From Candidatus Gastranaerophilales bacterium (GTDB taxonomy: Bacteria > Cyanobacteriota > Vampirovibrionia > Gastranaerophilales > Gastranaerophilaceae): a stretch of DNA of 37,969 bases. Every line of letters begins with the position of its first letter. Within the stretch, counting starts at the first letter, position 1. This document shows, piece after piece, positions 9,821 to 37,969 of the stretch. The position numbers and the translations under genes are program-made. The notes beneath the pieces are model-generated. The model had not been told where the DNA came from, made no database searches, and was given only the letters and a program-made list of their open reading frames with translations. The stretch lies in NCBI GenBank assembly GCA_023665105.1, contig JAMPEO010000001.1, forward strand, positions 1 through 37,969, in the 5' to 3' direction.

Positions 9821-10318
9821 ATGACTACAGATTGTCAATCCTCTATAAATTATCGTGATATAGATAATATACTAGAGTCTTATGAATACAACAAAGCGTA
9901 CTTAATAGCTATGTTGCAGAAGGTTCAAGAGATATATAAATATCTTCCTGAAGATGCAATGACATATATTGGTGAGAAAGTTGACGGTATATCGCCGGCT
10001 ACAGTTTATGGTGTAGCAACATTTTACGCACAATTCTCACTTGAGCCGAAAGGCAAATATGAAATAAAAGTTTGTGACGGTACTGCGTGTCACGTTAGGG
10101 GTTCATCTCCTGTTTTAGAAACGATTAAATCAAAGTTGAATCTATCCGAAGGTAAATTTACGACGCCTGACGGATTATTCTCTTTAGAAATAGTTAGTTG
10201 TCTTGGGGCTTGCGGGCTTGCTCCTGCGATTGTTATCAATGATAAAGTTTATCCACAGATGACAAGAGAAGCTGTTTCTACGATTATTGATACACTTATG
10301 AAAGATGAAAGAGAATAA
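9821..10318 (+). CDS. hydC: [FeFe] hydrogenase NuoE-like [2Fe-2S] subunit
   Basis: NuoE/HndA-type thioredoxin-like ferredoxin: VCDGTACHVRG...SCLGACGLAPA. Start set at ATG 9821 (SD AAGGAG 8 nt upstream) because the longer ORF start at 9752 lies upstream of the predicted -10. Confidence 0.85.
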   Translation: MTTDCQSSINYRDIDNILESYEYNKAYLIAMLQKVQEIYKYLPEDAMTYIGEKVDGISPATVYGVATFYAQFSLEPKGKYEIKVCDGTACHVRGSSPVLETIKSKLNLSEGKFTTPDGLFSLEIVSCLGACGLAPAIVINDKVYPQMTREAVSTIIDTLMKDERE

Positions 10319-10319
10319 T

Positions 10320-12182: not shown

Positions 12183-12201
12183 GGTATAAGGAAATATAAA
12201 T

Positions 12202-20967: not shown

Positions 20968-22896
20968 TTGAACTCATTTAATATATTACGAAAAAGCTTA
21001 ATATTATTGTGTGCATTTTTTACACTAGCAACATCAGTGCACGCTGACGCAATTATCAACGGTGTTACGTCTGATTTTGGCTTGCCGTCTGCTTCTCCTG
21101 AAAATACTGATGGTACAATGCTTCTCCCTGATATTAAGGCTACCCCGTATATCAAAGATATTGAGATTTATGGTGTTAATGTTATAAAACCATCTGTTGT
21201 ATTGTCTCAAATGCAGATTCACAAAGGTGATCCGTTTGATGCTGATATGGTACAACGTGATTTAAAAACAATTTATCAGTTAGGTTTCTTTACTGAAAAG
21301 ATGCGTGCTATTCCTGTTGAAAATGCGGATGGTACAATCACATTAAAGATTTTATTAGAAGAAAATATTCCTGTTACGGACGTTACTATTGATGGGAATA
21401 CTGTTGTTTCATCAGAAGAGCTTATGCCTCTTGTAACCCCTCTTATCGGTAAACCCCAAAATATTGAGAATGTAAACGAAGTTATTGAGAAAATCAATGA
21501 ATGTTATGCTGCAAAAGGTTACATTCTTGCAAGAGTTGATACTATTTATGATGATCCTGACGGTACTATCAATATTGGTGTTAAAGAAGGTAAGATTAAC
21601 AAAATTCTTATTTCAGGAAACCAAAAAACCAAAGATTATGTTATTACCCGTAACATTTTGACAGAACCTGGTATGGTTTACAACGAAAACCAAATTAAAG
21701 AAGATTTGGTTCGATTGTATTCAACACAAGCATTCAAGGATGTTAACAGAAGTATTGATGTTTGTGCAGATGATCCTGACAGATATGATGTTACTATTAT
21801 GATTACTGAACAAAGAACAGCATCTATATCTATGGGTGGTGGTCTTGATTCAAGTACCGGTGTCTTCGGTTCATTAGGTATTAGTGATAACAACTTTAGA
21901 GGTTTAAATCAACGTGTATCTTTAAGTGGTTTGGTTGGTTCAGGTGTTATCATGAGTGATACAACTGTTAAAAATCACATGAATTTTCAGGCTGAGTTAA
22001 GCTTTTTCCAACCATACTTTTTGAATGCTGATACATCTTTGATGAGTAAAATCTTCTTTAGAGATTTCGGTAGTTACAATGTTCCGTTAGCTGTTGAAGA
22101 CAGAATTGGTATTGAAGCAAGTTTGTCACATAGGATGAAATACAATCCTCAATTATCTACTACATTGGCAGTAGGTGTTGAAAATATTGATGTTCGTGAA
22201 GGTGACAGAAGCAGAATTGTAAATATGTATCGTGCGAAACATGTTCCGATTTCTGAACGTGCAAAACAGTTGGAAGGCGGATTATTCTTAACAGTTAGTC
22301 CGGGATTGCGTTATGATTCAAGAGATTCAGCGCTTAACCCTAGAAACGGTGTGTTAGCTACTGCAAGATTCGACCAAGCTTTTGCACTTGATGAGTTTAA
22401 TAAAACTAATGGTAAATTGACAGGTATGATTAAAAGATTCTTCCCTGTTGCACGCAAGTCTTCATTATCACTTACTGCAAAAGCCGGCGGCAAAATATAT
22501 GGCGACAATATGCCTGAAGTTATGGCATATCGTTTAGGCGGACCTTATACTGTTAGAGGTTATAAAATCAATGGTGTAGGTACCGGTGATGCATTTGTGA
22601 TGGGTTCTGCTGAATTGGCTACTCCTGTTCTTTTCTTGGACAGACTTAAGGTTAACTTCTTCCAAAACCTACGTTTAACATTCTTTGTTGATGCAGGTAA
22701 AGTATTTGGTTCTTATCTGTCTGATAAATTGTATGACAGACCAATGGAAGCAGTTACTGCAGGTATTGGTTTGAAACTTTATATTCCTGGTGTAGGTCCG
22801 CTATCTGTTGATTATGGTATCCCTATTACCAGATGTGGTTCTTACGGAAACAAAAATGGTTACTTCACCTTTGGTGTAGGCGACATGATGTACTAA
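20968..22896 (+). CDS. bamA: outer membrane protein assembly factor BamA/Omp85 family
   Basis: TTG start, signal peptide ...ATSVHA-DA, POTRA-like repeats and a C-terminal Omp85 barrel (RGY, ...YFTFGVGDMMY terminal aromatic). At 642 aa it is shorter than five-POTRA proteobacterial BamA. Confidence 0.9.
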   Translation: MNSFNILRKSLILLCAFFTLATSVHADAIINGVTSDFGLPSASPENTDGTMLLPDIKATPYIKDIEIYGVNVIKPSVVLSQMQIHKGDPFDADMVQRDLKTIYQLGFFTEKMRAIPVENADGTITLKILLEENIPVTDVTIDGNTVVSSEELMPLVTPLIGKPQNIENVNEVIEKINECYAAKGYILARVDTIYDDPDGTINIGVKEGKINKILISGNQKTKDYVITRNILTEPGMVYNENQIKEDLVRLYSTQAFKDVNRSIDVCADDPDRYDVTIMITEQRTASISMGGGLDSSTGVFGSLGISDNNFRGLNQRVSLSGLVGSGVIMSDTTVKNHMNFQAELSFFQPYFLNADTSLMSKIFFRDFGSYNVPLAVEDRIGIEASLSHRMKYNPQLSTTLAVGVENIDVREGDRSRIVNMYRAKHVPISERAKQLEGGLFLTVSPGLRYDSRDSALNPRNGVLATARFDQAFALDEFNKTNGKLTGMIKRFFPVARKSSLSLTAKAGGKIYGDNMPEVMAYRLGGPYTVRGYKINGVGTGDAFVMGSAELATPVLFLDRLKVNFFQNLRLTFFVDAGKVFGSYLSDKLYDRPMEAVTAGIGLKLYIPGVGPLSVDYGIPITRCGSYGNKNGYFTFGVGDMMY

Positions 22897-22913
22897 TTTT
22901 TAGGAGGATAATT

Positions 22914-23363
22914 ATGAAAAAATTTACTGTAAGCTTATTAGTAGCTCTTTCAATGATAATGTTTTCAGGTGTTTCGTTTGCAGGTGGTCTTGGTTATGTA
23001 GACTATGAAAAAGTTATTGAAAACTGTTCATTTGCATTGAACGCTAAGAAAAAATTAGATTCAAAGGCTATTGAAATTAAACAATTTATGTTTGATAAAG
23101 AAAAAGAATATGAATCTATTCAATCTCCTGTTCAAAAACAAAATTTCCAAGATAAGGTTACTGCAGAACTTAAAACTAAACAAAACGATTATTTGAGAAT
23201 GCAAGCAAAAACTGAACAAGAAGTTTTTACAAAGATAAGAGATGTTGCAAAACAAGTAATGGTTGAACAAAAACTTGATGCTATTATTAGTGACAAAGCT
23301 GTGTTCTGTGGTGGTGTTGATGTAACCAATACGCTTATTGACAGATTAAAAGGTGTAAAATAG
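22914..23363 (+). CDS. skp: Skp/OmpH-family periplasmic chaperone
   Basis: ATG 22914 is preceded by TAGGAGG. Signal peptide MKKFTVSLLVALSMIMFSGVSFA, then a Lys/Glu/Gln coiled coil. Sits immediately downstream of bamA. The longer ORF start at 22833 overlaps bamA and was rejected. Confidence 0.8.
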   Translation: MKKFTVSLLVALSMIMFSGVSFAGGLGYVDYEKVIENCSFALNAKKKLDSKAIEIKQFMFDKEKEYESIQSPVQKQNFQDKVTAELKTKQNDYLRMQAKTEQEVFTKIRDVAKQVMVEQKLDAIISDKAVFCGGVDVTNTLIDRLKGVK

Positions 23364-23465: not shown

Positions 23466-24926
23466 ATGTTTAGCAGAAATTTGGAATATATAATAAGAGA
23501 AGTTTCAACTGAAGATAGACAAGCTCTTCAAGATTTGCTTAATGAGATGTCATCTCAAGGTTGGGATTTATATACATTACACGAAGTTGAGATGGAAGAG
23601 GACTTTGTATATAGTTGTATTTTTATGCGTGAACGTCCTGCATCTGATGATAATGAAGTTTTTGACAAGGTTGTTAATGTGAAGAACTTCAAAGCTCAGA
23701 TGGAAAAAATGCTTTCTACTCAGCTTTCACCTTATGAAACTTGTAAAGATATAACCGCAAAAATTAGAGATCAAAAAGCCAGAGTTGCTAATATAAAATC
23801 TGAGATAGAAAAGGTTGACTGGTCTGACAGAGGTGCTTTGAATGAGCAAATGTCAGGGGCATTACGCAGATTGGAAGAGTTAAAGCAATCTTTGGTTAAG
23901 GAGATTTCTCCGGGTGTTATGTATTCAAGAATAGGAGAAGAAAAGTTTACTATAAACTTGGGAGAAGAGTTATTGGAGTTTGTCAGTCCTGATAATCAGA
24001 ATGATTTGTTATCAGAAACTGTTAAATCAAGACAGAAACTTACTGATGAGTTGGGTTATGTTATCCCAAGAATGGTTTTCCAAGATGATGATACACTAGA
24101 ACCTTATGAATTTAGTATCAAAGTTCACAATCTTGAGGTTTATAAATCTACTGCTGTGCCTGAACATATAGCATTCTTCAAGGATGATATCAATCTTAAA
24201 CGTAAGCCTGCGGGTACTATTGTCATAGATGATGTTATTACCGGAAAAGAGGTTTGGTGGATAGATGCTCAACAGGCTGAAGATTTCTGGGCAGATGGAT
24301 TTAATGCTGTTGAATATATTGCCAGAGCGATAGAATTTGTTTCTATTAAGTATGTTTCAGAATTGTTGGATTACAGTGATATTAACAGATATGTTACTTT
24401 GGTTGAACAACGTAATCCGTTTGTGATAAATAATATTATTCCTGATTTCATATCGTTGTCTGAACTTAAATACATTTTAATCAATTTGATTAGAGAAAGA
24501 ATTTCTATAAAGGATATTGATTATATATTTGAGAAGATAAACGATTTTTCTGATGAACTATCAAAAGATGGTTTGTTGGATAGAATAAGATTGTCGTTAT
24601 CAAAACATATTTCTCAACCTTATATTTCAGCAGAATCTACTCCTGTGATTGAGTTTTCCGGAGATACGTTGGATGAAATGTTCAAGCTGACAGAGGCTGA
24701 GGACGAAGCGATTATAAAGGTAGATGGAAAGGTTGCAGAAGATTTATCTAAAAAGATTGAGAAAGTAGCGAAAAAAGAGGAGTTAAAAGAAATTATCCTT
24801 GTTGTTCCTATGGAAATTAGACACATGACATTTGCAATTTTCTCTGAGTTTATAAATAATCTTACAGTTCTGGCACATGAGGAATTAACTTGTGAAACTA
24901 ATGTCAAAGTAATTGCGACTATATAG
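23466..24926 (+). CDS. soluble DUF4177-like + FlhA/SctV (FHIPEP) cytoplasmic-domain-like protein
   Basis: No TM segments. The N-terminus has LLNEMSSQGWDLYTLHEV (DUF4177 pattern). After a coiled coil, INLGEELLEFV...SRQKLTDELGYVIPRMVFQDDDTLEPYEFSIKVHNLEV and LSELKYILINLIRERISIKDIDYIFEKI parallel, from memory, FlhA LELGYGLIPLVD...IRKKFAQEMGF..P.V.IRDN..L.P..Y.I..KGVE and LQ.VLQNLL.E.VSIRD..TI.E. Confidence 0.8.
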   Translation: MFSRNLEYIIREVSTEDRQALQDLLNEMSSQGWDLYTLHEVEMEEDFVYSCIFMRERPASDDNEVFDKVVNVKNFKAQMEKMLSTQLSPYETCKDITAKIRDQKARVANIKSEIEKVDWSDRGALNEQMSGALRRLEELKQSLVKEISPGVMYSRIGEEKFTINLGEELLEFVSPDNQNDLLSETVKSRQKLTDELGYVIPRMVFQDDDTLEPYEFSIKVHNLEVYKSTAVPEHIAFFKDDINLKRKPAGTIVIDDVITGKEVWWIDAQQAEDFWADGFNAVEYIARAIEFVSIKYVSELLDYSDINRYVTLVEQRNPFVINNIIPDFISLSELKYILINLIRERISIKDIDYIFEKINDFSDELSKDGLLDRIRLSLSKHISQPYISAESTPVIEFSGDTLDEMFKLTEAEDEAIIKVDGKVAEDLSKKIEKVAKKEELKEIILVVPMEIRHMTFAIFSEFINNLTVLAHEELTCETNVKVIATI

Positions 24927-24949
24927 AATTATTAGTAAATAATAAGTAT

Positions 24950-24985
24950 AAAACGAGTCTTTTCCAATGATTAGGCTCGTTTTTA
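24950..24985 (+). terminator. weak hairpin terminator
   Basis: AAAACGAG...CTCGTTTTT: a short stem with a 15-nt loop and a T-run. Confidence 0.35.
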
Positions 24986-25234
24986 GATGTTGAAATTGCT
25001 TTAGTATTTGCGGTGAATGTTCTATCGTCATTTTCGGAAGTGCTAACTACAAAGTGACAAATCTTAACATTTCTGAAAAATCTTTATTGGCAAGGTGTTC
25101 GTATATATTTTTTATCTACAAAATATAGTTTTTATGGTGAAGGGGGTTGTAAAAAATAGAAAGATAGGTAATAATGTGTATATTACCCACTTGGATAATG
25201 TATTATGATGAAGTATTAACATGAGGATACATAT

Positions 25235-25300
25235 ATGAACCTTCTGCAACCGTTTAAAACCCCTGCTATTACTGTCTTTGAAAACTTCGGGGGGGGGTAG
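25235..25300 (+). other. SD-preceded ATG leader (21 codons), out of frame with the autotransporter ORF because of the G9 tract
   Basis: GAGGA lies 7 nt before ATG 25235. The translation MNLLQPFKTPAITVFENFGGG stops at TAG 25298-25300. With G10 or G7 it would read on into VAKSLISGLLLLFLCVIISPCAFA-AESS.... Confidence 0.7.
25289..25297 (+). repeat. homopolymeric G9 tract (candidate slipped-strand phase-variation switch)
   Basis: Counted directly: ..aaaacttcGG GGGGGGGtag... It is the longest G/C homopolymer I noticed in this AT-rich window. Confidence 0.9.
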
Positions 25301-25323
25301 CTAAAAGCCTTATCTCAGGTCTT

Positions 25324-28300
25324 TTGCTCCTATTTTTGTGTGTTATTATATCTCCGTGTGCGTTTGCTGCCGAGTCGTCTTATACGAAACCGGATAATTA
25401 TACTTATGGTTCGAGGATTGAGGATACTTTAACTAACGATATAAGTAATGTAGTGTTTACTAATCTTTCATTCGGGAATGAAGGTGGAGCTATCCGAAAT
25501 ACACAAAATGCTAACGTGAATATCATAGCAGACTTTGTGGCTAACTATGCTCACACAGATGCTTATGCAGCTGGTGGCGGTGCAATTTATAATACCGGTA
25601 GTATTGGTAATATCTCAGGTAATTTTATAGAGAACTATGTTACAAGTTCTGTTCCGATAGAATTATCCGGTGGTGCTATCTATAATTCAGGCAGTAGTGC
25701 TGTTATGGGTAAACTCGAAAATGTTACTTTTCAAGGTAACTATATCAAAACTGCAACGAATTCTTTAGTTAGGGGCGGTGCTATTGCAAATATAGATACG
25801 AAATCTAACACTATTGGGAATATTAGCGGCAGTTTTATAGGTAACTATGCGGAAACCGGTAATGCAAATGCACAAGGTGGAGCTATTGCGAACCATTGGG
25901 CAAATTTGTCTACTATTACAAATTCTGAGTTTAAAGATAATTACGTTAGTACATTAAACGGTCAGGCTCATGGCGGTGCTATTTATAATAATAACTATAC
26001 TTATATGGATAGTATATCAAATACTCTTTTTGAGGGTAATCAGGCTGTAAGTAATACTAACGCACGTGGCGGTGCTATTTATAACAATAATTTTAATAAT
26101 AATTATGCAAATAAAGCCAAAAGTCTTATAGATGGTACATTTAAAGCCAATGTTGCTTATGGTGGTAATGAAGCACTTGGTGGTGCAATATGTAATGATA
26201 ATAATTCTTATATTGGCACTGTTAGCGGAGAATTTATTCAAAACACTTCTATTGCAACCGGTAGTTCAGGTTGGGCAGAAGGCGGTGCAATTTGGAACTC
26301 AAATAATTCAACCATTGTAAATATATTAGATGCTGCTTTTACAGAGAACCGTGTTCAAGCTGAAAATGCAAATGCACAAGGTGCTGCTATATATAACGGT
26401 GCTGATAGTACTATTCAAAATCTTATAGGTACTTTTACGAATAACAGAATATATAATTCTAAAAAGGCTCATGGTGGAGCAGTTTTTAATGCAGGAACTA
26501 TGGGTATAAATTATTCTGAATTTAGAGATAATACTGCCATTGGTTCAGAAGAATCTCAAGGCGGTGCTATCTATAATAGCGGTAGTATGACACTTAGAAA
26601 TACAAGTTTTTATAATAACCGTGCTTATGTTACTAATGCTGATAATTCAGTTGCGGGTGGTGCTATTTATTCTAAATCTGATATTACTGTTTTAGCTGAT
26701 GGTGGTGTATCAGAGTTTTCCGGTAATATGACTGTATCCGGAACTAGTGGTTACAAAAGAGCTATTTATATTGATAATGCTTCTGCAACTTTAACACTAG
26801 AAGCTCGTAATGGTGGCGAAATTATTTTGCGTGACCATATTGATGGAGCTTCCGGTTATAACGTTACTATAACAGGTGATTATACCGGTACAGTTAATTT
26901 ATATAGTTATATAAATGATGCACATGTTTTTGTGAATAATGTTAAAGTCAACTTTAGTGATGATAGTATTAAAGGTAATGTATTTCAATCTTTCTCGTCA
27001 TTAGATAATGCTTCATATTCTTTTGATGTAGATTTGTCTAATGGTGTAGCTGATACTATTACTGCAGTAAATAGTTCTAGTGGTATTGTCAGAATAGATT
27101 CACTCAATTTTATCGGAGAGTCTTCTTCTCCTGTGGTTGTACAAATTTTAAATGTGCCTTACAAGGCAAGTTATGCACGTTTGTCTTTGAATTCCATCAA
27201 TTTTACCACTCAACTTGATGATACAATTACTAATGAAACCGTTTTAACAGGAAAACAAGTTGTACTTGCTACAACAAATACTACGTATGACTCTATCCGA
27301 ATTACCGGTAAAGTTTATGATACTTTAAAAGAGTTAAACCAAAAAACTACAACAAACGAAAGAAATTTTAACTTTGTTAATATAGCAACTTATACCGTTC
27401 GTGAAGATTTAGGTACGACTTCTTCCGGAACACTAAATATCAACGGTATGGTTGATGGTAATAAAAAATCAACTATTGATTTTAATAAAAATTCAGGTTT
27501 TCAGCTTAATATCAGCGGAAGAAATCTTAATGTATCAAATGTGAAATTTACAAATGCAGTATCTGATAACGAGCGTGGTTCTGTTATCAATATGCAAAAT
27601 ACTTCAACAGCAGAGTTTACAAATGTAGATTTTGTAAACAATCATTCTATAAATTCCGGTGATGCTCTTGGTTCAGCTGTTTCAGTGTCTAATGGTTCAA
27701 GAATAACAAGTCTTACCGGAAGTTTTGTTGGTAATGTTTCAAGTGCTGACGGTTACTATATTGAAGGTGGTGCTCTCTGGAATTCCAATTCAGGATATAT
27801 TGATAATATAGTAGCAGATTTCGTAGAAAATTCTGCCATTGGTAATGCTGATGTTAATGGTGGTGCTGTTTATAACAATTATTCTGATATTCAAAGAATA
27901 GAGGGTGATTTTATAAAAAATAGTGCTCAAGGTATGCACGTAAAAGGTGGTGCTATATATAATACAAATCTTGCACGTATCAATTATATTGAAGGTTTAT
28001 TCAAAGAAAATAGTGCCAGCGGTAGTGCAGCTACTTATGGCGGTGCTATATATAATGATAATGGTTATTTGCCTGCTATTACAAATTCTTCCTTTATAGG
28101 AAATTATGCTCATGCTGATAGTGAGACTGCTCAAGGTGGTGCTATTTATACTGCTGCTAATATTAAGATTATTGCAGATAATGGTATTTCAGAATTTACT
28201 GGTAATTATTCTCAAATTGGTGATGGTGAAAAGAATTATAACGCTATATACGTTAATAATTCTGATGCAACATTGTATCTTGAGCCTAGTAATAATGGTA

Positions 28301-31300
28301 CAATTATTTTAAATGATAATATCGACGGTGCACAAGGTTATACCGTTGCAGTTGCAGGTAATTCTACCGGTACTCTAGCTTTGAATAATGATATTAAAAA
28401 TGCTAAGGTTTATATCAATACCGTTAATGTCAGTACTGCAAATAATTCCATACGTGATTATACATTCTATATGTTGAGTTCTAATGCTAACGCAAAATAT
28501 AATATTGATATAGATTTAGACAATGTCGGTTCTGCCGATAGGTTTGTTACAACAGGTCTATCAACAGGAACGGTAACTTTGAATTCTATCAATTTTATGA
28601 ATAATATCGGATACGTTGATGAATGTATTATTCAAGTAATTGATAACAAAAATACCTCATCTACACTTAAACTTGCACTTGGTAATAATATTGTTTCATT
28701 GCCTGATGCCGGCAATACTATTAGTAATGAAACCGTTATTGCTGATGTAGGGGGTATTACTCTTGCAACTACAAATACAACAGATGATTCAATCAAAGTT
28801 ACAGGTAAAATATATGATAATCTTTCATACATAAATAAGAAAACATCTGAAGAAGAACGCAATTTTAATTTTGTTAATACTTCTACTTATACTGTGAAAG
28901 AAAATCTTGGCACAGCCTCTACAGGTGTTCTTAATATCAATGGTAAAACAAACGGAGATGCGAAGTCTACTATTGATATGAATGAACATTCAGGTTTTGT
29001 TGTCAAAGGTAATACTATCTTAAATCTTACAGATGTTAATATTGTTAATGCAAAAGCATCAACTGAACGCGGTTCTGTTATTACGGTTTCTGATGGTAAT
29101 TCCCAAAAAGTTAATATTCAAAATGTTACTTTTTCTGATAACAAAATTGAATCAGATGGTGATGGCTTCGGTGCTGTAATATCAAATCAGGGCTATGGGA
29201 TAATAGGCAATATTAACGGAAAATTTGAGAACAATAGTGTTAATGCCAAAGGTTATTGGGCTGAAGGCGGAGCAATTTGGAATTCAAATGTAAGTTCTAT
29301 TCAAAATATTGATGCAGACTTCATTGCTAACTCTGTTGTTGGTGCCAGTGATACTACAGCTAAGGGTGGTGCTATTTATGTAAATTATTACAGTAGTATT
29401 GAAAATATAAACGCAAATATTATTGAAAATAATATTTCAGGTAAAACAGCTCTTGGTGGTGCAATATTTAATGGTTCTGCCAGCAATATTGGCACTATAA
29501 CCGGCACGGTTGTTGGAAACTATGCTATTGGTACAGAAACTGCAAGGGGCGGTGCTATTTATAATGAAGGCTCATCTATTGATGCTTTAAAAAATATTGT
29601 ATTCAAAGATAACTACGTTAAGAGTGAAACAGGCACTGCACAAGGTGGTGCAATATATACTGATTCCAATTTAAAAGTACTTGCTGATAATGGTGTTTCT
29701 GCATTTACAGGAAACTATAGTCAAAATGGTGAAAATATTGATAATAATGCTATTTATGTTGGTAGCTCAAATGCAACTGTTACCTTAGAAATAAAAAATA
29801 AAGGTGTAATTGTTTTTGATGACAATATAAAAGGACAAAAAGGATATTCTGTTAATGTTACAGGGGATAATTCCGGTGCGGTATTATTGAATAATACCGT
29901 TGAAAATGCAAATGTTAATATATCAAATGCAAAAGTTATTCTAAATGATGAAACATTACTGAATAATGAATCGTCATTAGCTTTAAATAATGGTACATTA
30001 ACAGTTCTAAATAATAAAATTGGCACAATGGAGCTTGAAACACTTACATTGACAGGCAAAAATAACCATATATCTCTTGATATTGACCCTAAAAATGCAG
30101 CGTCTGATAGTATAGTTGCAAATAATTATAATATAGCTGAGGATGCAGTATTGTACGTGGATGACATCAATATTATGTCTGTAACTACAGATAAAAATAT
30201 GCGTATAAAATTTGCAGACGAAGCACTTGCCGGTAATGTTGTTTATAACGGTCATAAAACTGCAATAACAACACCGATATTTAAATATAATGTTGCTTAT
30301 CTTGTAGATAAAGATAATAGCGGTTACTTCGCATTTGGTCGTGGTTCAAGCGGTGATTGGAGAAGCTACAACCCTGCTGTATTATCATCTGCTGTAGTTG
30401 CACAAGCTGGTGCTTACACAACTATGGTTCAAACTTTCAATCATGCATTCTCACATTCAGATACGTATATGAATATTCCTAATAGTGAAAGATTATCATA
30501 TAAAAATAAAGGAAAATACGCTGTTGCCGGTGATACTAATATGCCGGGTGTATTTTCGCCGTTAATGACAAATGATAAGGATGCAGGATTCTGGGTTAAA
30601 CCTTATGCAACATTTGAAAATATTCCGTTGAAAAATGGACCAAAAGTTCAGAATATCAACTATGGAACATTGATTGGATATGACTCACCGTTAGAAAGTC
30701 TTAAAAACGGCTGGGATAGAGTTATGACATATTACTTTGGTTACAATGGCTCTACTCAGCATTTTACAGGTGTTGATTCATATCAAAACGGTGGGCTTGC
30801 CGGTGTAACCATGAGTTTATATAAAGGTAAATTCTTTAATGCGACAACAGTTTCTGCCGGTGCTACTGTAGGTGAAATATCTACTATGTATGGCAGTGAA
30901 ACATTCACTGCTTTGATGGCTGGTATTGCTAACAAAACCGGATATAATCTTGAATTTAAAGAAGGTAGATTTATTATTCAACCGTCTATGTTCTTATCTT
31001 ATGCATTTGTTAATACTTTTGATTATACAAATGCTGCAGGAGTTAGAATTGATAGTGATCCGCTTAGTGTAATTCAAGTTGCACCAGGACTTAAGTTTAT
31101 TGGTAATACTAAAAACGGCTGGCAGCCATATTTCGCAATAAGTATGGTTTGGAATATTACTTGTGATTCTACTGTTAGAGCTAATAATGTTCAAATGCCT
31201 TCTATGAGTATTGATCCGTTTGTCCAATATGGTTTAGGCTTGCAAAAACGTGTTTCTGATAGATTTACGGGATTTATTCAGGCTATGATTCAAAACGGAG

Positions 31301-31359
31301 GACGTAATGGCGTTGCATTAACTGCAGGTTTCCGATGGGCAATCGGCAGGGGTAAATAA
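25324..31359 (+). CDS. giant type Va autotransporter with Pmp-like (GGAI[YWF]N / FxxN) repeats in three ~500-aa modules plus a C-terminal beta-barrel
   Basis: 2011-aa ORF with dozens of GGAIYN/GGAIWN repeats. The anchor ADxGVSxFxGN recurs at nt 26695, 28174 and 29683. The C-terminal ~300 aa has alternating autotransporter-barrel features (GFWVKPYATFENIPL...ALTAGFRW). The true start is probably ATG 25235, reached through the G tract. TTG 25324 has no SD and gives a signal peptide with no charged n-region. Confidence 0.9.
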   Translation: MLLFLCVIISPCAFAAESSYTKPDNYTYGSRIEDTLTNDISNVVFTNLSFGNEGGAIRNTQNANVNIIADFVANYAHTDAYAAGGGAIYNTGSIGNISGNFIENYVTSSVPIELSGGAIYNSGSSAVMGKLENVTFQGNYIKTATNSLVRGGAIANIDTKSNTIGNISGSFIGNYAETGNANAQGGAIANHWANLSTITNSEFKDNYVSTLNGQAHGGAIYNNNYTYMDSISNTLFEGNQAVSNTNARGGAIYNNNFNNNYANKAKSLIDGTFKANVAYGGNEALGGAICNDNNSYIGTVSGEFIQNTSIATGSSGWAEGGAIWNSNNSTIVNILDAAFTENRVQAENANAQGAAIYNGADSTIQNLIGTFTNNRIYNSKKAHGGAVFNAGTMGINYSEFRDNTAIGSEESQGGAIYNSGSMTLRNTSFYNNRAYVTNADNSVAGGAIYSKSDITVLADGGVSEFSGNMTVSGTSGYKRAIYIDNASATLTLEARNGGEIILRDHIDGASGYNVTITGDYTGTVNLYSYINDAHVFVNNVKVNFSDDSIKGNVFQSFSSLDNASYSFDVDLSNGVADTITAVNSSSGIVRIDSLNFIGESSSPVVVQILNVPYKASYARLSLNSINFTTQLDDTITNETVLTGKQVVLATTNTTYDSIRITGKVYDTLKELNQKTTTNERNFNFVNIATYTVREDLGTTSSGTLNINGMVDGNKKSTIDFNKNSGFQLNISGRNLNVSNVKFTNAVSDNERGSVINMQNTSTAEFTNVDFVNNHSINSGDALGSAVSVSNGSRITSLTGSFVGNVSSADGYYIEGGALWNSNSGYIDNIVADFVENSAIGNADVNGGAVYNNYSDIQRIEGDFIKNSAQGMHVKGGAIYNTNLARINYIEGLFKENSASGSAATYGGAIYNDNGYLPAITNSSFIGNYAHADSETAQGGAIYTAANIKIIADNGISEFTGNYSQIGDGEKNYNAIYVNNSDATLYLEPSNNGTIILNDNIDGAQGYTVAVAGNSTGTLALNNDIKNAKVYINTVNVSTANNSIRDYTFYMLSSNANAKYNIDIDLDNVGSADRFVTTGLSTGTVTLNSINFMNNIGYVDECIIQVIDNKNTSSTLKLALGNNIVSLPDAGNTISNETVIADVGGITLATTNTTDDSIKVTGKIYDNLSYINKKTSEEERNFNFVNTSTYTVKENLGTASTGVLNINGKTNGDAKSTIDMNEHSGFVVKGNTILNLTDVNIVNAKASTERGSVITVSDGNSQKVNIQNVTFSDNKIESDGDGFGAVISNQGYGIIGNINGKFENNSVNAKGYWAEGGAIWNSNVSSIQNIDADFIANSVVGASDTTAKGGAIYVNYYSSIENINANIIENNISGKTALGGAIFNGSASNIGTITGTVVGNYAIGTETARGGAIYNEGSSIDALKNIVFKDNYVKSETGTAQGGAIYTDSNLKVLADNGVSAFTGNYSQNGENIDNNAIYVGSSNATVTLEIKNKGVIVFDDNIKGQKGYSVNVTGDNSGAVLLNNTVENANVNISNAKVILNDETLLNNESSLALNNGTLTVLNNKIGTMELETLTLTGKNNHISLDIDPKNAASDSIVANNYNIAEDAVLYVDDINIMSVTTDKNMRIKFADEALAGNVVYNGHKTAITTPIFKYNVAYLVDKDNSGYFAFGRGSSGDWRSYNPAVLSSAVVAQAGAYTTMVQTFNHAFSHSDTYMNIPNSERLSYKNKGKYAVAGDTNMPGVFSPLMTNDKDAGFWVKPYATFENIPLKNGPKVQNINYGTLIGYDSPLESLKNGWDRVMTYYFGYNGSTQHFTGVDSYQNGGLAGVTMSLYKGKFFNATTVSAGATVGEISTMYGSETFTALMAGIANKTGYNLEFKEGRFIIQPSMFLSYAFVNTFDYTNAAGVRIDSDPLSVIQVAPGLKFIGNTKNGWQPYFAISMVWNITCDSTVRANNVQMPSMSIDPFVQYGLGLQKRVSDRFTGFIQAMIQNGGRNGVALTAGFRWAIGRGK

Positions 31360-31457: not shown

Positions 31458-32417
31458 TTAGTCATCAGCGTGACCAGCTGTACCTAATACATCAACCATT
31501 TTGTGTTTTACTAATTCTTTAACAGCAGTTCTGCCTGGTCCCATGTATTCACGTGGGTCGAATTTAGCAGGTTCTTCGATAAAGAATTCTCTGATTGTTG
31601 ATGTCATAGCTAATCTTAAGTCTGTATCGATATTGATTTTAGCAACACCGTGTTTAGAAGCATAGTTTAACATATCTTCAGGAACACCTTGTGCGTTTGG
31701 TAATTTACCGCCGAATTTGTTACATTTAGCAACTAAATCTTGTGGAACTGATGAAGAACCGTGAAGAACGATTGGATAATCACCAAAACCAGCTTCTTTA
31801 AGAGCATCTTTGATTTCTTTAAGTCTGTCAAAGTCAAGTTTAGCTTCACCAGCGAACTTGTAAGCACCGTGTGAAGTACCGATAGCGATTGCTAATGAAT
31901 CACAGCCAGTTTGCTTAACGAATTCAACAGCTTCTTTAACGTTAGTATATTTAGCATCTTTAGCGTCAACATTAACATCGTCTTCAATACCTGCTAATTT
32001 ACCAAGTTCAGCTTCAACTGAAACTCCTCTTTCGTGAGCGTATTCAACAACTTTCTTAGTAACAGCAACGTTTTCTTCAAATGAGAATCTTGAACCGTCA
32101 ATCATAACTGAAGAGAAACCGCCATCGATACAAGCTTTACAAATTTCAAAGTCTGCACCGTGATCTAAGTGAAGTGCGATAGGTACTGTAGTTGTAGCTA
32201 AAGCTGCTTCTACTAATTTGATTAGATATGTTTGGTTAGCATATTTTCTAGCACCTGCTGAAACTTGAAGAATGATTGGTGATCTTGTTTCTTCTGCAGC
32301 TTCTGCAATCGCTTGTAAAATTTCCATATTGTTTACATTGTAAGCACCGATAGCATATCCGCCTTCTAATGCTTTTTTGAACATTTCGTTTGTTCCAACT
32401 AATTTTCTTTCGCTCAT
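31458..32417 (-). CDS. fba: class II fructose-1,6-bisphosphate aldolase
   Basis: GGYAIGAYNVNN, PIALHLDHG, AIGTSHGAYKF, IVLHGSSSVP and INIDTDLR motifs. SD GGAGG lies upstream. Confidence 0.95.
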   Translation of the reverse strand: MSERKLVGTNEMFKKALEGGYAIGAYNVNNMEILQAIAEAAEETRSPIILQVSAGARKYANQTYLIKLVEAALATTTVPIALHLDHGADFEICKACIDGGFSSVMIDGSRFSFEENVAVTKKVVEYAHERGVSVEAELGKLAGIEDDVNVDAKDAKYTNVKEAVEFVKQTGCDSLAIAIGTSHGAYKFAGEAKLDFDRLKEIKDALKEAGFGDYPIVLHGSSSVPQDLVAKCNKFGGKLPNAQGVPEDMLNYASKHGVAKINIDTDLRLAMTSTIREFFIEEPAKFDPREYMGPGRTAVKELVKHKMVDVLGTAGHADD

Positions 32418-32642: not shown

Positions 32643-35600
32643 ATGAAAAAGTTATTGTTTTGTTTGATATATTTGTGTTTTGTTCTGTCATCAGTGAGTG
32701 CAAAAACTGTTAATATTTCTGACTTTTATGATTTTATGGATAATACCGATAGCAATACATCTATGGTTTTAAAAAACGATATAAATATGTTATCAAACTG
32801 GTCATTTGCTAATAATATATCTATCAATGGCTCAAACAATGTATTTAACAATAACGGATTTCGCCTTACTAACAACGGAATATTAAACTTATCTTCCATA
32901 ATTTTTAATGATACAAGTTTATCTTCTTTCGGAAATATTACTAATAATCATTCTCTTAATGCACTGAAAGGGGATGTGAAATTTGGATCAGGCGTTATAG
33001 GGGATGGAACCTTTAATGTTAAGGGTGCACAAGTTGTTTTCGGAAAAGATTCTTCACTTTCTCAATCACAAGTAAATATCTCAAAAGGGCATCTTGCTAT
33101 TTTTGCTGATAGTTTAAAGACAGAAAATGTTGTTAATAATGCAAAAAATGGACTTTATCTTGATAATGGAGAACTTAAAAATGTAAATATTTCAGGCAAA
33201 GGTTCTACTTATATTCAAGGACATGTAGTTGTCGATAAAGATTCTTTAATAAGTCAAAAAATTACTATTCCTGTTTTGTCAACTACTACAGAAGAGACTG
33301 TAAAACAATATTGGGCTAATGACGATGGATACAGGTATTTAATTACTGATATGGATGTATATTTAGCGGAACATCCTGAATGTAATCCTGATTCAGACTT
33401 GGAAGTAACAGAAATTATTAAAGAATATAGTTCTCCAAAAGCTTCTTTAACTGCTAGTGCTAATAGTTTGCTTGGTACTGTTGTGAATAATGCAGGTCTT
33501 ACGTTATTAGATGGTACTATTACTAAAGCTATTAGTGGTACAGGCGGCTTAACCATAGATGGTATTGTTGAGAATATTGCTAAAATTGCTCAAAATTCGA
33601 TTGTGGTTATGGATTCAGCTTCTTTCAAAACTAATGCCGGTTTGTTAGATAAAAATATCACTTTTGTTAATTTAGGAGATTTGTATTTAACAGGCGGCAA
33701 TTTATCTTGTGATATTACCGGTGATGGAATGACGTATATTGAGGGTGCTGTTGGTAACAAAACTTATATCAACTCACCATTGACTATTTTGCCCAAAGGT
33801 TTGTTATTGTCCAATGCTTCTTTGATATATGAAGACATAGTAAATAACGGAATTTTGCAGTTATCTGCCGGAACATTTGATAAAATTGATGAAGGAAATC
33901 CTATTAAGATAACAGGTTCAGGTCATACCCAAATTGTGGGAAAAGTAGTCGTAAATTCTGATATTGAACAAAGTATAGATGTAACTAAAAAAGGTACACT
34001 TAAAGTATGTCCTAATAGAATAAAAGGTAATGTTATCAATGAAGGTACTTTAAATTATATAGGCGGTTATTCTAATTATTTTGTACAAAACAGTAATAAA
34101 ATGAATATTGAAAAAACTATTGTTGCAAAAGATATTGATAACTGGGCTAATTTAACTATTAAAGATTCTGTTGTGACAGGTGTGGCTGATGATTTGGGGC
34201 TTATTGAAAATTATAAAAATTTAACATTCGTTTCGTCAAACTATGAGAAAAATGTGATTGAAAATAATGTTGGAGTTGTAATATACAATTCTGTGATGGT
34301 TGATGGCAAAAAGGTTTATACCGGAAATCTTACTGTTTCAGGTAGTGCAGAGTTTAAAAACAATGTTAATCAAAATGGTAATGGCGGTGTGATTTTTAAT
34401 GATAATAACGGGTCTAAATATGCTCCTAAAGTAGTTCTCAAAGGCAATTATGACAAGGTTTGGCTTAATGATGCAAGTTCATTTACTGCTAATGATGCTG
34501 CAAATGGCGGGGCTATTTATAATAATGGCGGGGTAGTTGATTCTAAACGATATGTGTTTAAAAATAATAATGCTCAACGTGGCGGAGCGATTTATAATAA
34601 TGAAAATTCAACACTAAAACTTACAACATCTGCTTTTAGCGAAAATAATGGTACAGAACAAGGTGGTGCTATTTATAATTCCGGAAGTTTGATTGATAAA
34701 AATGGCTTGTTTATGTCAAATACAGCTAATAATGGTGGTGCTGTTTATAACAATGGAAATACAGTTTTTAATGGGACTCAATTTTATAAAAATGGCGGAA
34801 CAATAGCTGATGATTGTAAAACGGTGGAGGGTGATGTTGCTCAAAAAGGTGGTGCTATCTCTAATAGCGGAATATTGACTCTTAAAAATACACAAATTGG
34901 AAAAATTAGTTATTCTTTTCCTAGTCATATTATGAACAATGTTTTGGTTTATCCGTATTATCCATCAAACCCTGTGAAAATAGTTCCTTACGGAAATGTT
35001 GCTGAATTGGGTGGCGGCTTATATAATTCAGGTATTGCTAATTTAGCAGGTACTGATTTTTCTAATAATTTAGCAACAGAAAATGGCGGTGCCGTTTATA
35101 ATAATATAATGGGAGTTTTAACTGTAAAATCTTCCGGATTTTATAGTAATATTGCATCTCAAAAAGGTGGAGCTATATATAATGAAAATGATATAAATGT
35201 TGTTTCATCGACCTTTGACGGTAATAGTGCAGTGTTTGGTGGGGCATTATATACAAACAATAATATGAATTCTAAACAAGCAAAAATTGATAAAAGCGAT
35301 TTCTGTCATAATAAATCTACTGAAAAAGGCGGGGCTATTTACATTAATACCGGTAATGTTTTAATTAAAAATTCTAAAATAGGTTCGATTATGAACGGAG
35401 GTAATACTGCTGAAAATAGCGGCGGTGGAATTTTTAATAATGGAACGGATACGCAAATTATCTCCTCATATTTTGCAAAAAACTCTGCGAAAACTGGCGG
35501 AGATATATATAATACTGGTAAAATGACTATTTCAAAGACCTCTTTTGGCTATAGTCCAATACCTAAGGGTGGTAAATATTTTATTTCAATTAGAATATAC

Positions 35601-37969
35601 CCGATATATGCTCCAATTATTAGGTATCCTTATGCTGATGAAAACACAACATTTGATTATAATGGTGAAATTTATTATCCTATAAGATTTCCATTATATG
35701 ATAATTATGAGATACGTGATGGTTCTACAGCAGAGCAAGGCGGCTCAATTTTCAATCAAGGCGAGATTACTATAACTTCATCAAAATTTGGGTATTCTGC
35801 TGCATTGGAAGGTGCTGCAATTTATAATGATACAACAGGCAAATTAACTATAAACAGTACAACATTTAATTATAATGATGCTCTTGTAAGATCTAAAAAA
35901 GATAATCAACAACAAGAAGATGCAGAAGACGACTTGAATCTTGTTACTAAAGGTGGTGCCATCTATAATAAAGGTTATATTGAAATCAAAAATAAAACTA
36001 AGTTTGTTTCAAATACTGCTGAGTCAGGACAAGGTGGAGCTATTTATAACGATAATTCAGGTAGTATAGATATTTTCAATACAACATTTAATAAAAACAA
36101 TGCTCAACAAGGCGGAGCTGTTTATAATACAGGTACTTTAACAACTGATAACAAAACCAAGTTTACTTCTAATATAGCTGAAAAAGGTGGTGCTTTGTAT
36201 TTAGGTGGAGGTTCGGCTACTACTATAAATGGAACAGAATTTAAGTCTAACCAAGCTTCATATAATGATGGTTCTACTTATGAAGGAGAATCTATTGATT
36301 CTGTTCGTCCGGTAGTGAATGCGAATGGTGGTGCAATTTATGCTGATAATGCTACATTAGAAATAAATAAAGCTAAATTTACAAGTAACACTGCTAAATC
36401 AGGTTTCAATTATGAATTTAATAATTATGGTGATGAAGAAATTGGTTATACTTCTACTATCCAAAACGAAGGTGCCGGATGTGGTGGTGCAATTTATTTG
36501 ACAGGGATTACATCTGCTAAAATTGATGGAACTACTTTTAAATCCAATTCTGCAAATTATGCAGGTGGTGCAATTTATAACCAATCATTAGATAATATTG
36601 TGATTTCTAACTCTACTTTTACTTCTAATTCTGCAATGCAAAACATTTCTACTGAATATATTGATAATGATGGCAATAGTTCAAAAGCAAATGCTTATAA
36701 TGGTAAGGGTGGTGCTATATACAACGAGGGAAATCTGAAACTTACCAACGTTACTTTTACTTCAAATAAGGCAGGTGATAAGGGTGGTGCTGTTTATAAT
36801 AACTCATCAGATGTATTAACTATAGAAAATTGTAAATTTAATAAGAATACTGCGAAAAGTGTTTTCAAAGATAATGAAACTTATAGTTATTATGATGAAG
36901 AATCTGGTAAAACTATTCAATCTGATGTTTCCGGTACTAGTTATATGGGTTCAGGCGGTGCTATATATAACGAAAATGGAACAATCAATATTACAAATAC
37001 GACATTCACTTCTAATCAGGCTGGGGAAGATAGTGGCGGTGGAGCTATATATAATGAAAACGGTACGATAAATATCTATGAAGGTACTAAGTTTACTAGC
37101 AATTCTGCGAAAGTTAAATATACTGATACTTGGAAAGAAAATGGAAAAACTTATAAAGAATCTAAGTATATTGGTTATGGCGGAGCTATATTTAATTCAC
37201 AAGGATTTTTAAATATTCAAGGTTCAAAAGATGCGATGGTTTTATTTAAGTCTAATCAGGCAGGAGATGCCGGTGGTGCGATTTATAATGATGACGGTCA
37301 ATTAAATATCAATTATGCAAAATTTGAATCTAATAAATCCGTAGGTGTTGGTGGTGCTTTATTTTTAAATCACCTTGATTCTGAAACGGCAACAACTCAT
37401 ACAATTTCAAATTCGGTGTTTAGTAAAAATTCTGCGGTAAGTGGTGGAGCTATCTTTTTAGCCGGCGGTCATCTGCAGTTAGCTGATACAAGTTTCACAA
37501 ATAACACTGCAAAGGAGACAGGTGGTGCTATTTATGCAGGATACGGTAGTATTGTTGATATTTTTGCAATCAATAGTGATGTTATATTTAAGGGTAACAA
37601 AGCAAATGGTAAATCAAATGCTATTCATTTAGAAGAAGCTACTCTCAATCTTCAAGCAAATGATGGTAGAACAATTTCAATATTTGATAATATTAGCGGT
37701 ACAGGGCTTATAACCAAAAAAGGAAATATATACATAGCAAATGAAGCTAAACTTGAAGAAGGTTCAGATATTACTATTAAAAGTAATTCCGGTTCATTAG
37801 TTTTCGGAAATGAAAATAATATGAACGGGTTGTCTATTCAATTATCAGGTGAAAGTGATATCATTACAGCAAACAATTCTGTTCGTACCTTATCATTGAA
37901 CAAACTAACCTTATCTGACAACACAACGACCAACGTGTCAATCGACATGGACTTACAAAGCGGCACAAG
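32643..37969 (+). CDS. second giant Pmp-repeat (GGAIYN) passenger protein, 3'-partial (runs off the window), presumed autotransporter
   Basis: Not in the ORF track, which is consistent with no stop inside the window. ATG 32643 has SD AGAGGA 6 nt upstream. Signal peptide MKKLLFCLIYLCFVLSSVSA-KT. My manual translation of frame 3 stays open to 37969 and gives many GGAIYN/GGAVYN/GGALY units, ending ...TTTNVSIDMDLQSGT. This resembles the NHISLDIDPKNAASD region of the first protein. Confidence 0.85.
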   Translation, partial: MKKLLFCLIYLCFVLSSVSAKTVNISDFYDFMDNTDSNTSMVLKNDINMLSNWSFANNISINGSNNVFNNNGFRLTNNGILNLSSIIFNDTSLSSFGNITNNHSLNALKGDVKFGSGVIGDGTFNVKGAQVVFGKDSSLSQSQVNISKGHLAIFADSLKTENVVNNAKNGLYLDNGELKNVNISGKGSTYIQGHVVVDKDSLISQKITIPVLSTTTEETVKQYWANDDGYRYLITDMDVYLAEHPECNPDSDLEVTEIIKEYSSPKASLTASANSLLGTVVNNAGLTLLDGTITKAISGTGGLTIDGIVENIAKIAQNSIVVMDSASFKTNAGLLDKNITFVNLGDLYLTGGNLSCDITGDGMTYIEGAVGNKTYINSPLTILPKGLLLSNASLIYEDIVNNGILQLSAGTFDKIDEGNPIKITGSGHTQIVGKVVVNSDIEQSIDVTKKGTLKVCPNRIKGNVINEGTLNYIGGYSNYFVQNSNKMNIEKTIVAKDIDNWANLTIKDSVVTGVADDLGLIENYKNLTFVSSNYEKNVIENNVGVVIYNSVMVDGKKVYTGNLTVSGSAEFKNNVNQNGNGGVIFNDNNGSKYAPKVVLKGNYDKVWLNDASSFTANDAANGGAIYNNGGVVDSKRYVFKNNNAQRGGAIYNNENSTLKLTTSAFSENNGTEQGGAIYNSGSLIDKNGLFMSNTANNGGAVYNNGNTVFNGTQFYKNGGTIADDCKTVEGDVAQKGGAISNSGILTLKNTQIGKISYSFPSHIMNNVLVYPYYPSNPVKIVPYGNVAELGGGLYNSGIANLAGTDFSNNLATENGGAVYNNIMGVLTVKSSGFYSNIASQKGGAIYNENDINVVSSTFDGNSAVFGGALYTNNNMNSKQAKIDKSDFCHNKSTEKGGAIYINTGNVLIKNSKIGSIMNGGNTAENSGGGIFNNGTDTQIISSYFAKNSAKTGGDIYNTGKMTISKTSFGYSPIPKGGKYFISIRIYPIYAPIIRYPYADENTTFDYNGEIYYPIRFPLYDNYEIRDGSTAEQGGSIFNQGEITITSSKFGYSAALEGAAIYNDTTGKLTINSTTFNYNDALVRSKKDNQQQEDAEDDLNLVTKGGAIYNKGYIEIKNKTKFVSNTAESGQGGAIYNDNSGSIDIFNTTFNKNNAQQGGAVYNTGTLTTDNKTKFTSNIAEKGGALYLGGGSATTINGTEFKSNQASYNDGSTYEGESIDSVRPVVNANGGAIYADNATLEINKAKFTSNTAKSGFNYEFNNYGDEEIGYTSTIQNEGAGCGGAIYLTGITSAKIDGTTFKSNSANYAGGAIYNQSLDNIVISNSTFTSNSAMQNISTEYIDNDGNSSKANAYNGKGGAIYNEGNLKLTNVTFTSNKAGDKGGAVYNNSSDVLTIENCKFNKNTAKSVFKDNETYSYYDEESGKTIQSDVSGTSYMGSGGAIYNENGTINITNTTFTSNQAGEDSGGGAIYNENGTINIYEGTKFTSNSAKVKYTDTWKENGKTYKESKYIGYGGAIFNSQGFLNIQGSKDAMVLFKSNQAGDAGGAIYNDDGQLNINYAKFESNKSVGVGGALFLNHLDSETATTHTISNSVFSKNSAVSGGAIFLAGGHLQLADTSFTNNTAKETGGAIYAGYGSIVDIFAINSDVIFKGNKANGKSNAIHLEEATLNLQANDGRTISIFDNISGTGLITKKGNIYIANEAKLEEGSDITIKSNSGSLVFGNENNMNGLSIQLSGESDIITANNSVRTLSLNKLTLSDNTTTNVSIDMDLQSGT

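Follow-up and report, generated by a model that had tools for sequence, protein, structure and literature searches.

A poly-G tract as a probable on/off switch of a Pmp-like autotransporter gene in Candidatus Gastranaerophilales

Is a gene whose only good start codon lies out of frame, on the far side of a run of nine G residues, broken or switched off? This question is raised by a 6-kb open reading frame (ORF) on contig JAMPEO010000001.1 of a Candidatus Gastranaerophilales bacterium, of which we analysed positions 1 to 37,969 (this entire 37,969-nt stretch is called the window, and all positions are given in its numbering). Textbooks describe homopolymer phase variation of surface proteins for a handful of cultured pathogens, and the Melainabacteria/Gastranaerophilales are known only from metagenomes. 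Our literature search returned no report on phase variation or autotransporters in Melainabacteria/Gastranaerophilales. We find that the G9 run is probably a hypermutable homopolymer in the 5' coding region of a Pmp-like type Va autotransporter gene, and that it is very probably a reversible on/off switch, here caught in the off state. The analysis supports a homopolymer-switched autotransporter in a lineage for which none had been described; the mechanism itself is textbook, and what is new is the lineage, the size of the gene family, its conserved leader cassette and the parallel with the chlamydial Pmps.

A G9 tract between a start codon and a 6-kb reading frame

Direct reading of the region returned the coordinates given by an original prediction for this DNA: an ATG at 25235 with a GAGGA Shine-Dalgarno (SD) sequence at a spacing of 7 nt, a G9 tract at 25289-25297 and a TAG directly after the tract. 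Recomputation agreed that this ATG opens a leader ORF of 21 codons (MNLLQPFKTPAITVFENFGGG), which closes at the TAG. The tract begins 54 nt after the ATG, and the final three Gly codons of the leader ORF are the G9 run itself.

The adjacent frame is preceded by a TGA (25279-25281) and is then free of stops for 2025 codons. The original prediction described this frame as open from 25282 and as an ORF of 2011 aa whose only start is a TTG at 25324; this TTG is indeed its first canonical start, and the description held with one small correction, namely that the first codons read KLRGGVAKS. The N-terminal region of the frame reads KLRGGVAKSLISGLLLLFLCVIISPCAFA followed by cleavage before AESS, and comprises a hydrophobic core and an AXA-type site. 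We also found, as had been claimed, that the frame has no ATG, SD sequence or charged n-region of its own and that TTG 25324 has no SD sequence either. The public gene call (P0001) starts even later, at TTG 25336, and begins 'MCVIISPCAFA'. The predicted Sec signal peptide, with its core and AFA/AE site in the main frame, would be complete with a start codon only in the ON phase.

Simulating other tract lengths, we obtained a single protein of 2040-2042 aa with G7, G10 and G13, which agrees with the earlier statement that G7 or G10 would fuse the leader and the ORF. With G6, G8, G9, G11, G12 and G14, the product was 20-24 aa. Every length in the range G6-G14 other than G7, G10 and G13 yields this short product because TAG 25298 and TAA 25302 close both wrong frames. 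The assembled consensus is OFF, one G short of ON, and in this sense the description of the gene as caught off is true; roughly two thirds of the relatives likewise have an out-of-frame tract.

The tract also stands out from the base composition of the window, which has a GC content of 33.6%. It is the sole run of G or C of at least 7 nt; there is one G6, and no C run reaches 6. Under an independent-base model, 0.012 G runs of at least 9 nt are expected per window, in keeping with the earlier judgement that this tract is unlikely to be there by chance.

Layout and length of the tract in relatives

By homology search, the window protein has more than 2,371 relatives, nearly all of them metagenome proteins without a name (one bears the label Candidatus Gastranaerophilaceae). 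At least 424 family loci were detected when one genome per species was scanned. The best 80 of these at least 424 loci are almost all from metagenome-assembled genomes (MAGs) of Candidatus Gastranaerophilales/Melainabacteria from human and animal guts, which were assembled with SPAdes, MEGAHIT or IDBA (Illumina-type assemblers). At least 10 family paralogues are present in one MAG. Between the window's housekeeping genes and genes that the fetched family loci happen to contain, identity is 55-83%, which places the window in a Gastranaerophilales-type bacterium that has no close relative among the collections searched. No close orthologue of the window gene was found in a collection of 5.8 billion proteins; the full-length search reaches relatives only through the C-terminal third and the repeat blocks, at no more than 50% identity.

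We found that the layout seen in the window recurs across this family. Many relatives have GGG or GGGG in their N-termini immediately before the signal-peptide core, and 20 of the 68 genes with a reachable 5' end carry a coding-strand run of G9-G15 within 70 nt of the frame opening. After exclusion of the window and of three loci that had been chosen for their N-termini, the layout recurs in 16 of 64 relatives, a set that was fetched regardless of N-termini and whose 5' ends are reachable. All tract-bearing relatives have an SD-preceded ATG 39-77 nt upstream and a leader that runs for 13-25 codons into the tract, and the tract is always G on the coding strand and always just before the signal-peptide core. 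The leaders themselves are alike (FKTPAITVFENF-GGG versus LKTLVNKAFWVH-GGG and LKPLSHNDFKI-GGGG) and share a similar (L/F)K(T/P)(L/P)...F motif.

Long G/C runs form a class of their own in these loci. In 1.35 Mb of family loci (L004-L083), we counted two G/C runs of 7 nt, none of 8 nt and 28 of 9-15 nt, and at least 19 of the 28 long runs lead directly into a family ORF longer than 800 codons. Such a bimodal distribution of run lengths marks a tract class under selection and is not what composition would give.

Four of the 28 tracts lie away from a recognisable family-gene start (L012 at 1040, C11; L023 at 7527, C10; L040 at 410, C9; L051 at 4008, G10), and five (L007, L022, L026, L032 and L074) have the leader layout followed by a short ORF only. 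Both groups may represent additional switch sites or family genes whose frame is broken a second time.

Tract length varies among relatives at one and the same locus. Three independent assemblies of one locus have G12, G9 and G10 in a 250-nt 5' region that is otherwise almost invariant. At a second orthologous locus, 95 nt upstream and 45 nt downstream of the tract are identical in eight samples (L084-L091), and the tracts are G10, G11 (three samples), G12, G12 followed by AG, and G13 (two samples); the cluster of this locus includes a protein named Candidatus Spyradomonas excrementavium. L085 and L087 differ by G10 versus G12 with 0 other mismatches over 6154 nt, and L084 and L087 differ by G13 versus G12 with two mismatches. 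Hence, the tract changes much faster than point substitutions accumulate.

Both states are found in real samples. The 90%-identity cluster that contains the Spyradomonas protein has an ON form (MKKHLNKTLKTLVCKAISPM-GGG-AGRN..., 1840 aa), a GGGG form of 1841 aa and an OFF form of 1813 aa, which is called from the first Met past the tract. Of the 51 contigs listed for this cluster, 16 carry the ON form, close to the one third expected under free length drift. ON and OFF forms are also mixed in two more clusters (P0158 and P0168 versus P0028 and P0045), and leader and protein are fused in frame in P0012, P0124, P0158 and P0168. Among 16 unselected representative loci, 2 are ON, 4 need +1 and 10 need -1; the window needs +1. 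The slipped-strand phase variation put forward in the original prediction is thus supported, mainly by the recurrence of the layout and by tract-length polymorphism at homologous loci of relatives, and it is on these loci that the case for a switch in the window gene mainly rests. The comparison proposed in the original prediction, between tract-length polymorphism in orthologues and replacement of the tract by mixed GGN codons, came out in favour of polymorphism within the family.

Two further observations concern the eight-sample locus. A haplotype ~1% diverged from that of G10, G12 and G13 is common to the three G11 (ON) alleles, and because they share it, the ON/OFF state at this locus is partly confounded with strain lineage. 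In L091, the frame is restored (1841 aa) by an AG inserted after G12, not via tract length.

Gene callers truncate or mis-start the genes of this family, as seen with P0001 and many cluster members, and therefore annotations and protein catalogues systematically misrepresent them. Many family gene calls are also extended upstream through translated repeats (HPEFISGSY, PLSLGEGWGEGW, SDSEHTQSSQT and FRMTENL), and the proteins with such repeat-extended N-termini include P0004, P0005, P0008, P0021, P0047, P0049, P0075 and P0107. This pattern suggests that repetitive extragenic palindromic (REP)-like or miniature repeat DNA may have been inserted 5' of these family genes.

The encoded protein and comparable systems

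Pfam and NCBIfam gave nothing for the window protein at default thresholds. The Pfam Autotransporter model (PF03797) and the NCBIfam autotransporter models had no match even at E values up to 10, Pfam returned no PMP middle domain at E up to 10, and a PDB sequence-profile search was empty. We found a sub-threshold match to Pfam Chlam_PMP (PF02415) over seven stretches, with an E value of 0.058 and 14.1 bits against a cut-off of 20.6; the Chlam_PMP domain is present in some family relatives. The whole ORF contains 22 GGA[ILV] and 34 FxxN motifs, which alternate in three blocks with a period of ~31 residues, and the repeat consensus of the family is GGAIYN...ITGDFIGNYA. These tetrapeptide motifs point to a Pmp-like passenger. 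An extended signal peptide of the ESPR type was considered and rejected, since the Pfam ESPR model matched neither the G10-fused N-terminus nor the N-terminus of an ON-state relative.

We then turn to the predicted fold. An AlphaFold2 model of the C-terminal 560 residues, which covers only the final part of the passenger plus the translocator, was built from an 18-sequence alignment and has a mean predicted local distance difference test (pLDDT) score of 84.3. Model residues 1-220 form a regular beta-solenoid, residues 233-277 a long alpha-helix and residues 304-554 twelve long strands. The best PDB matches in Foldseek are the translocators of AIDA-I, EstA, EspP, BrkA, Hbp and NalP, with E values from 3e-13 to 5e-10 and a target template modelling (TM)-score of up to 0.85. 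By this model, the window protein is an autotransporter at the level of fold, with the barrel and helix of type Va, and the modelled solenoid together with the ~31-residue repeats upstream of it corresponds to a predicted beta-helical passenger. Because the curated sequence models have no match, membership in type Va rests on the predicted fold. The word autotransporter in the original prediction is therefore borne out by a predicted fold that matches solved translocators and not by sequence profiles, which find no autotransporter domain. Conservation in the family lies mainly in the C-terminal 570-730 residues and is highest in the barrel (~50% identity to relatives), and the invariant positions of the family barrel are kept in the window protein.

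Among known systems, the PmpG group of the chlamydial Pmps comes closest. Poly-G tracts of 8-19 nt in this group have frameshifts at the tract in many copies and have been interpreted as slipped-strand phase variation (PMC6740158, PMC3323650). They are known from Chlamydia pneumoniae, C. abortus, C. psittaci and C. felis and from C. trachomatis pmpG, in which the poly-G is near the gene start (PMC6740158; PMC4488443), and GGA(I,L,V) and FxxN motifs define the chlamydial Pmp passengers (PMC3323650). The PmpG group and the present family are alike as type V autotransporters with GGA(I,L,V)/FxxN repeats, expansion into paralogues and a variable poly-G in the coding region with frameshifts. However, the Chlamydiota are obligately intracellular, whereas the present hosts are gut-associated Melainabacteria/Gastranaerophilales, and the C-terminal domain here is missed by the Pfam Autotransporter and PMP-middle models, with Chlam_PMP below threshold. 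The position of the tract differs too: it is mostly ~1.3 kb from the gene end and within the passenger in chlamydial PmpG, and always between the leader and the signal-peptide core here. The parallel in repeat motifs, secretion type and poly-G device would mean shared ancestry or convergence.

Neisseria, Haemophilus, Campylobacter and Helicobacter have homopolymeric contingency loci that include phase-variable autotransporters, for example the poly-C tracts of N. meningitidis NalP and MspA and the poly-G of C. jejuni CapA. As in these pathogens, a G/C run of at least 8 nt lies in the 5' coding region of a surface gene, every third length is ON, stops follow promptly in the other frames, and the length varies among near-identical strains. 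Unlike in these pathogens, the hosts here are uncultured and known from sequence alone, the family is much larger per genome (the MAG with its 10 or more paralogues), and the tract follows a conserved translated leader and precedes the signal-peptide core. The opa genes of Neisseria have CTCTT repeats inside the region coding for the signal peptide. They resemble the present family in having a repeat in the signal-sequence coding region of multi-copy outer-membrane adhesins with combinatorial ON/OFF states, but the opa repeat is a pentanucleotide and the products are 8-strand beta-barrels, not autotransporters. The proteobacterial ESPR is likewise a conserved extension of ~20-25 residues before the normal signal peptide of a large autotransporter; here, in contrast, the ESPR model has no match and a variable Gly run separates the extension from the signal peptide.

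Switching, its alternatives and other features of the window

We propose that the locus works as follows. Translation would start at the SD-preceded ATG 25235. At G7, G10 or G13, the 18-codon leader and two to four Gly residues would be in frame with the signal-peptide core, and the resulting 2040-2042-aa precursor would be exported through Sec and inserted by BamA, whose gene is close by, for display at the surface. At any other length, the ribosome would stop at TAG 25298 or TAA 25302 after 20-24 codons, no more than two codons past the tract, and the 6-kb ORF would stay untranslated in this OFF phase because it has no SD sequence or ATG of its own. Slipped-strand mispairing in replication would gain or lose a G and create ON and OFF cells within one population, and several tract-bearing paralogues per genome would give the population many combinations of surface proteins. 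Such switching would presumably be reversible and under selection.

A DNA motif accompanies the tract. The consensus TTAAAACCCTTGT, also written TTAAAACCC, lies ~24-27 nt 5' of the tract in many family members, including the window (where it reads TTTAAAACCCCTGCT), L020, L021, L024, L038, L042, L065, L074, L088 and others. Its frame differs by locus, so that it is read as KTLV or KPLS. Because the motif is translated in two frames, its conservation is perhaps at the level of DNA or RNA. It could promote slippage or RNA-level frame correction, which would be more than an ordinary homopolymer switch. In the minimum-free-energy fold of the window sequence, the C run of the motif pairs with the G tract; this fold is no better than those of shuffled sequences.

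The OFF consensus of the window could come from a consensus artefact or a mixed population in which the true or predominant tract is G10 and the gene is ON, one G having been lost. A one-base miscall in a run of G9-G10 is the commonest homopolymer error, and in simulation one added G restores the frame exactly. We consider this unlikely, since the other window genes are intact, no further broken gene was seen and the +1 site of prfB is exactly preserved, since an out-of-frame consensus is the majority in relatives that were assembled independently with three programs, and since both +1 and -1 offsets are present, which a systematic under-call would not produce. A one-base error would in any case leave the nature of the element unchanged, as the tract would still be hypermutable. 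A generally poor assembly was rejected on the intact window genes and the canonical prfB site. Slippage at the RNA level, through polymerase stuttering or ribosomal frameshifting on G9, would instead yield some in-frame product as leaky expression and make the tract a constitutive attenuator in place of, or besides, a DNA switch. Runs of at least nine identical bases provoke transcriptional slippage in bacteria, mostly at A/T runs. The somewhat low share of ON genotypes among the representatives (2/16) speaks for RNA slippage, and the upstream motif, read in two frames, makes a role at the nucleic-acid level conceivable. However, a single locus with identical flanks shows all three phases, and ON makes up about one third of contigs, as in unconstrained drift at the DNA level. 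From a programmed recoding site one would expect one fixed offset; the tract does not have the form of such a site, whereas prfB in the same window has the classical conserved one. Leader RNA is no more stable than shuffled controls (z = -0.04), and there is no Rfam family match across 24900-25420. A structured RNA element at the tract, riboswitch-like or a recoding signal, was rejected on the same two results, and we regard RNA-level slippage as quite improbable.

The missing own-frame start might also be the mark of a dead gene, a decaying frameshift pseudogene in which the G run is incidental, and autotransporter families often include pseudogenes. Yet the frame holds 2011 stop-free codons in DNA of 34% GC, which is evidence against decay, the barrel has kept its identity to relatives and its invariant positions, and the sole lesion falls exactly in a tract class that the rest of the genome neighbourhood lacks and that other family members have at this position. 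These points leave very little room for a dead gene. Finally, the Gly run might be a linker of fixed length and the true start TTG 25324 or 25336, the second of which is the choice of gene callers. These TTG starts have no SD sequence, leave out the n-region and truncate the hydrophobic core, whereas the leader is conserved, and ON alleles have it fused in frame. Tract lengths of relatives differ by non-multiples of three; because they differ by 1-2 nt, we rejected the fixed linker, which is hardly credible.

Several points count against a DNA switch at this tract. The proportion of ON genotypes in the 16 representatives is below one third, a shortfall that is not significant (binomial ~0.06). 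The length differences between samples are those of assembly consensus sequences at 8-38x coverage, and long G runs are prone to error in library PCR and sequencing. A protein-collection search with the first 120 aa of the G10-fused product gave no match at E up to 10, and an exact-flank DNA pattern had 0 matches in JGI metagenome contigs. At the window locus itself, slippage probably takes place, ATG 25235 is the probable start given its SD sequence and its conservation in the family, and a role as adhesin or surface antigen is suggested by family resemblance.

If the switch operates as proposed, gut commensals would vary their surface stochastically through a multigene family of autotransporters, with a bearing on gut persistence in the face of antibodies and phages. 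A wider reading is that the Gastranaerophilales hold a large set of contingency loci, in which Pmp-like autotransporters are gated by a conserved cassette (SD-ATG leader, TTAAAACCCTTGT-like motif, Gn and signal-peptide core) and varied in combination against host immunoglobulin A or phages. We hold this reading to be rather doubtful.

Table 1. Features at and around the G9 tract (whole-stretch numbering)
Feature	Position	Strand	Evidence or remark
Promoter-like hexamer pairs, overlapping (TTGTAA-17-AATAAT, TAGAAA-16-TATATT)	25147..25184	+	Consensus scan, 9/12 matches each, weak
Shine-Dalgarno GAGGA	25223..25227	+	Sequence reading; GAGG/AGGA equivalent in tract-bearing relatives
Leader ORF MNLLQPFKTPAITVFENFGGG and TAG; would be an N-terminal extension of the signal peptide in the ON phase	25235..25300	+	
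Window copy of the DNA motif, TTTAAAACCCCTGCT (consensus TTAAAACCCTTGT)	25253..25267	+	Comparison with relatives
Main open frame: PMP-repeat passenger and C-terminal translocator	25282..31359	+	
G9 homopolymer, proposed slipped-strand switch	25289..25297	+	Sequence; family tracts G9-G15
Signal-peptide n/h/c regions in the main frame, VAKSLISGLLLLFLCVIISPCAFA	25297..25368	+	Translation reading
TAGCTAA, stops for both non-productive frames directly 3' of the tract	25298..25304	+	
Predicted cleavage after AFA	25368/25369	+	-3/-1 rule from established knowledge
Passenger with three blocks of alternating GGA[ILV]/FxxN repeats	25483..29656	+	Motif count
Predicted alpha-helical linker, model residues 233-277	30373..30507	+	AlphaFold2
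Predicted 12-stranded beta-barrel translocator, residues 304-554, ending ...GFRWAIGRGK	30586..31338	+	AlphaFold2 and Foldseek

The promoter-like pairs of Table 1 sit in the 308-nt spacer downstream of the preceding gene. BamA and OmpH/Skp-like genes are found just upstream (20968-23363). A 486-aa protein (23466-24926, + strand) aligns with FHIPEP/FlhA in the cytoplasmic C-terminal half alone (profile positions 323-655 in Pfam and 339-678 in TIGR01398), and its first ~150 aa are unmatched. Because the OmpH-like gene ends at 23363, there is no upstream space for the FlhA membrane domain; the sequence is that of what may be a stand-alone FlhA-C-like protein.

A second PMP-repeat gene (32643-37969, + strand) starts at ATG 32643 with an SD sequence (AGAGGA) and the signal peptide MKKLLFCLIYLCFVLSSVSA. 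It is free of any tract and ordinary in its start region, as the original prediction had said of this neighbouring paralogue. Its product matches Pfam Chlam_PMP with an E value of 1.7e-39 over 19 repeats and has 25 GGA[ILV] and 37 FxxN motifs. The gene runs off the contig end and is divergent from a class II aldolase gene (31458-32417, minus strand).

The release factor 2 gene prfB (5216-6280) starts at ATG 5216 and reads AAT AAG GAG TAT CTT TGA C at 5250-5269. Its main ORF, with PCRF and RF-1 domains, is listed from TTG 5279, and its programmed +1 site is AGGAG TAT CTT TGA C (5253-5269). This site is a known feature and a useful internal control for the accuracy of the assembly where the frame is critical. 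Genes for a NuoF-like flavoprotein and an Fe-only hydrogenase large subunit are adjacent at 10305-13956 (+ strand), a pair that fits the fermentative metabolism with hydrogen production described for Melainabacteria of the gut.

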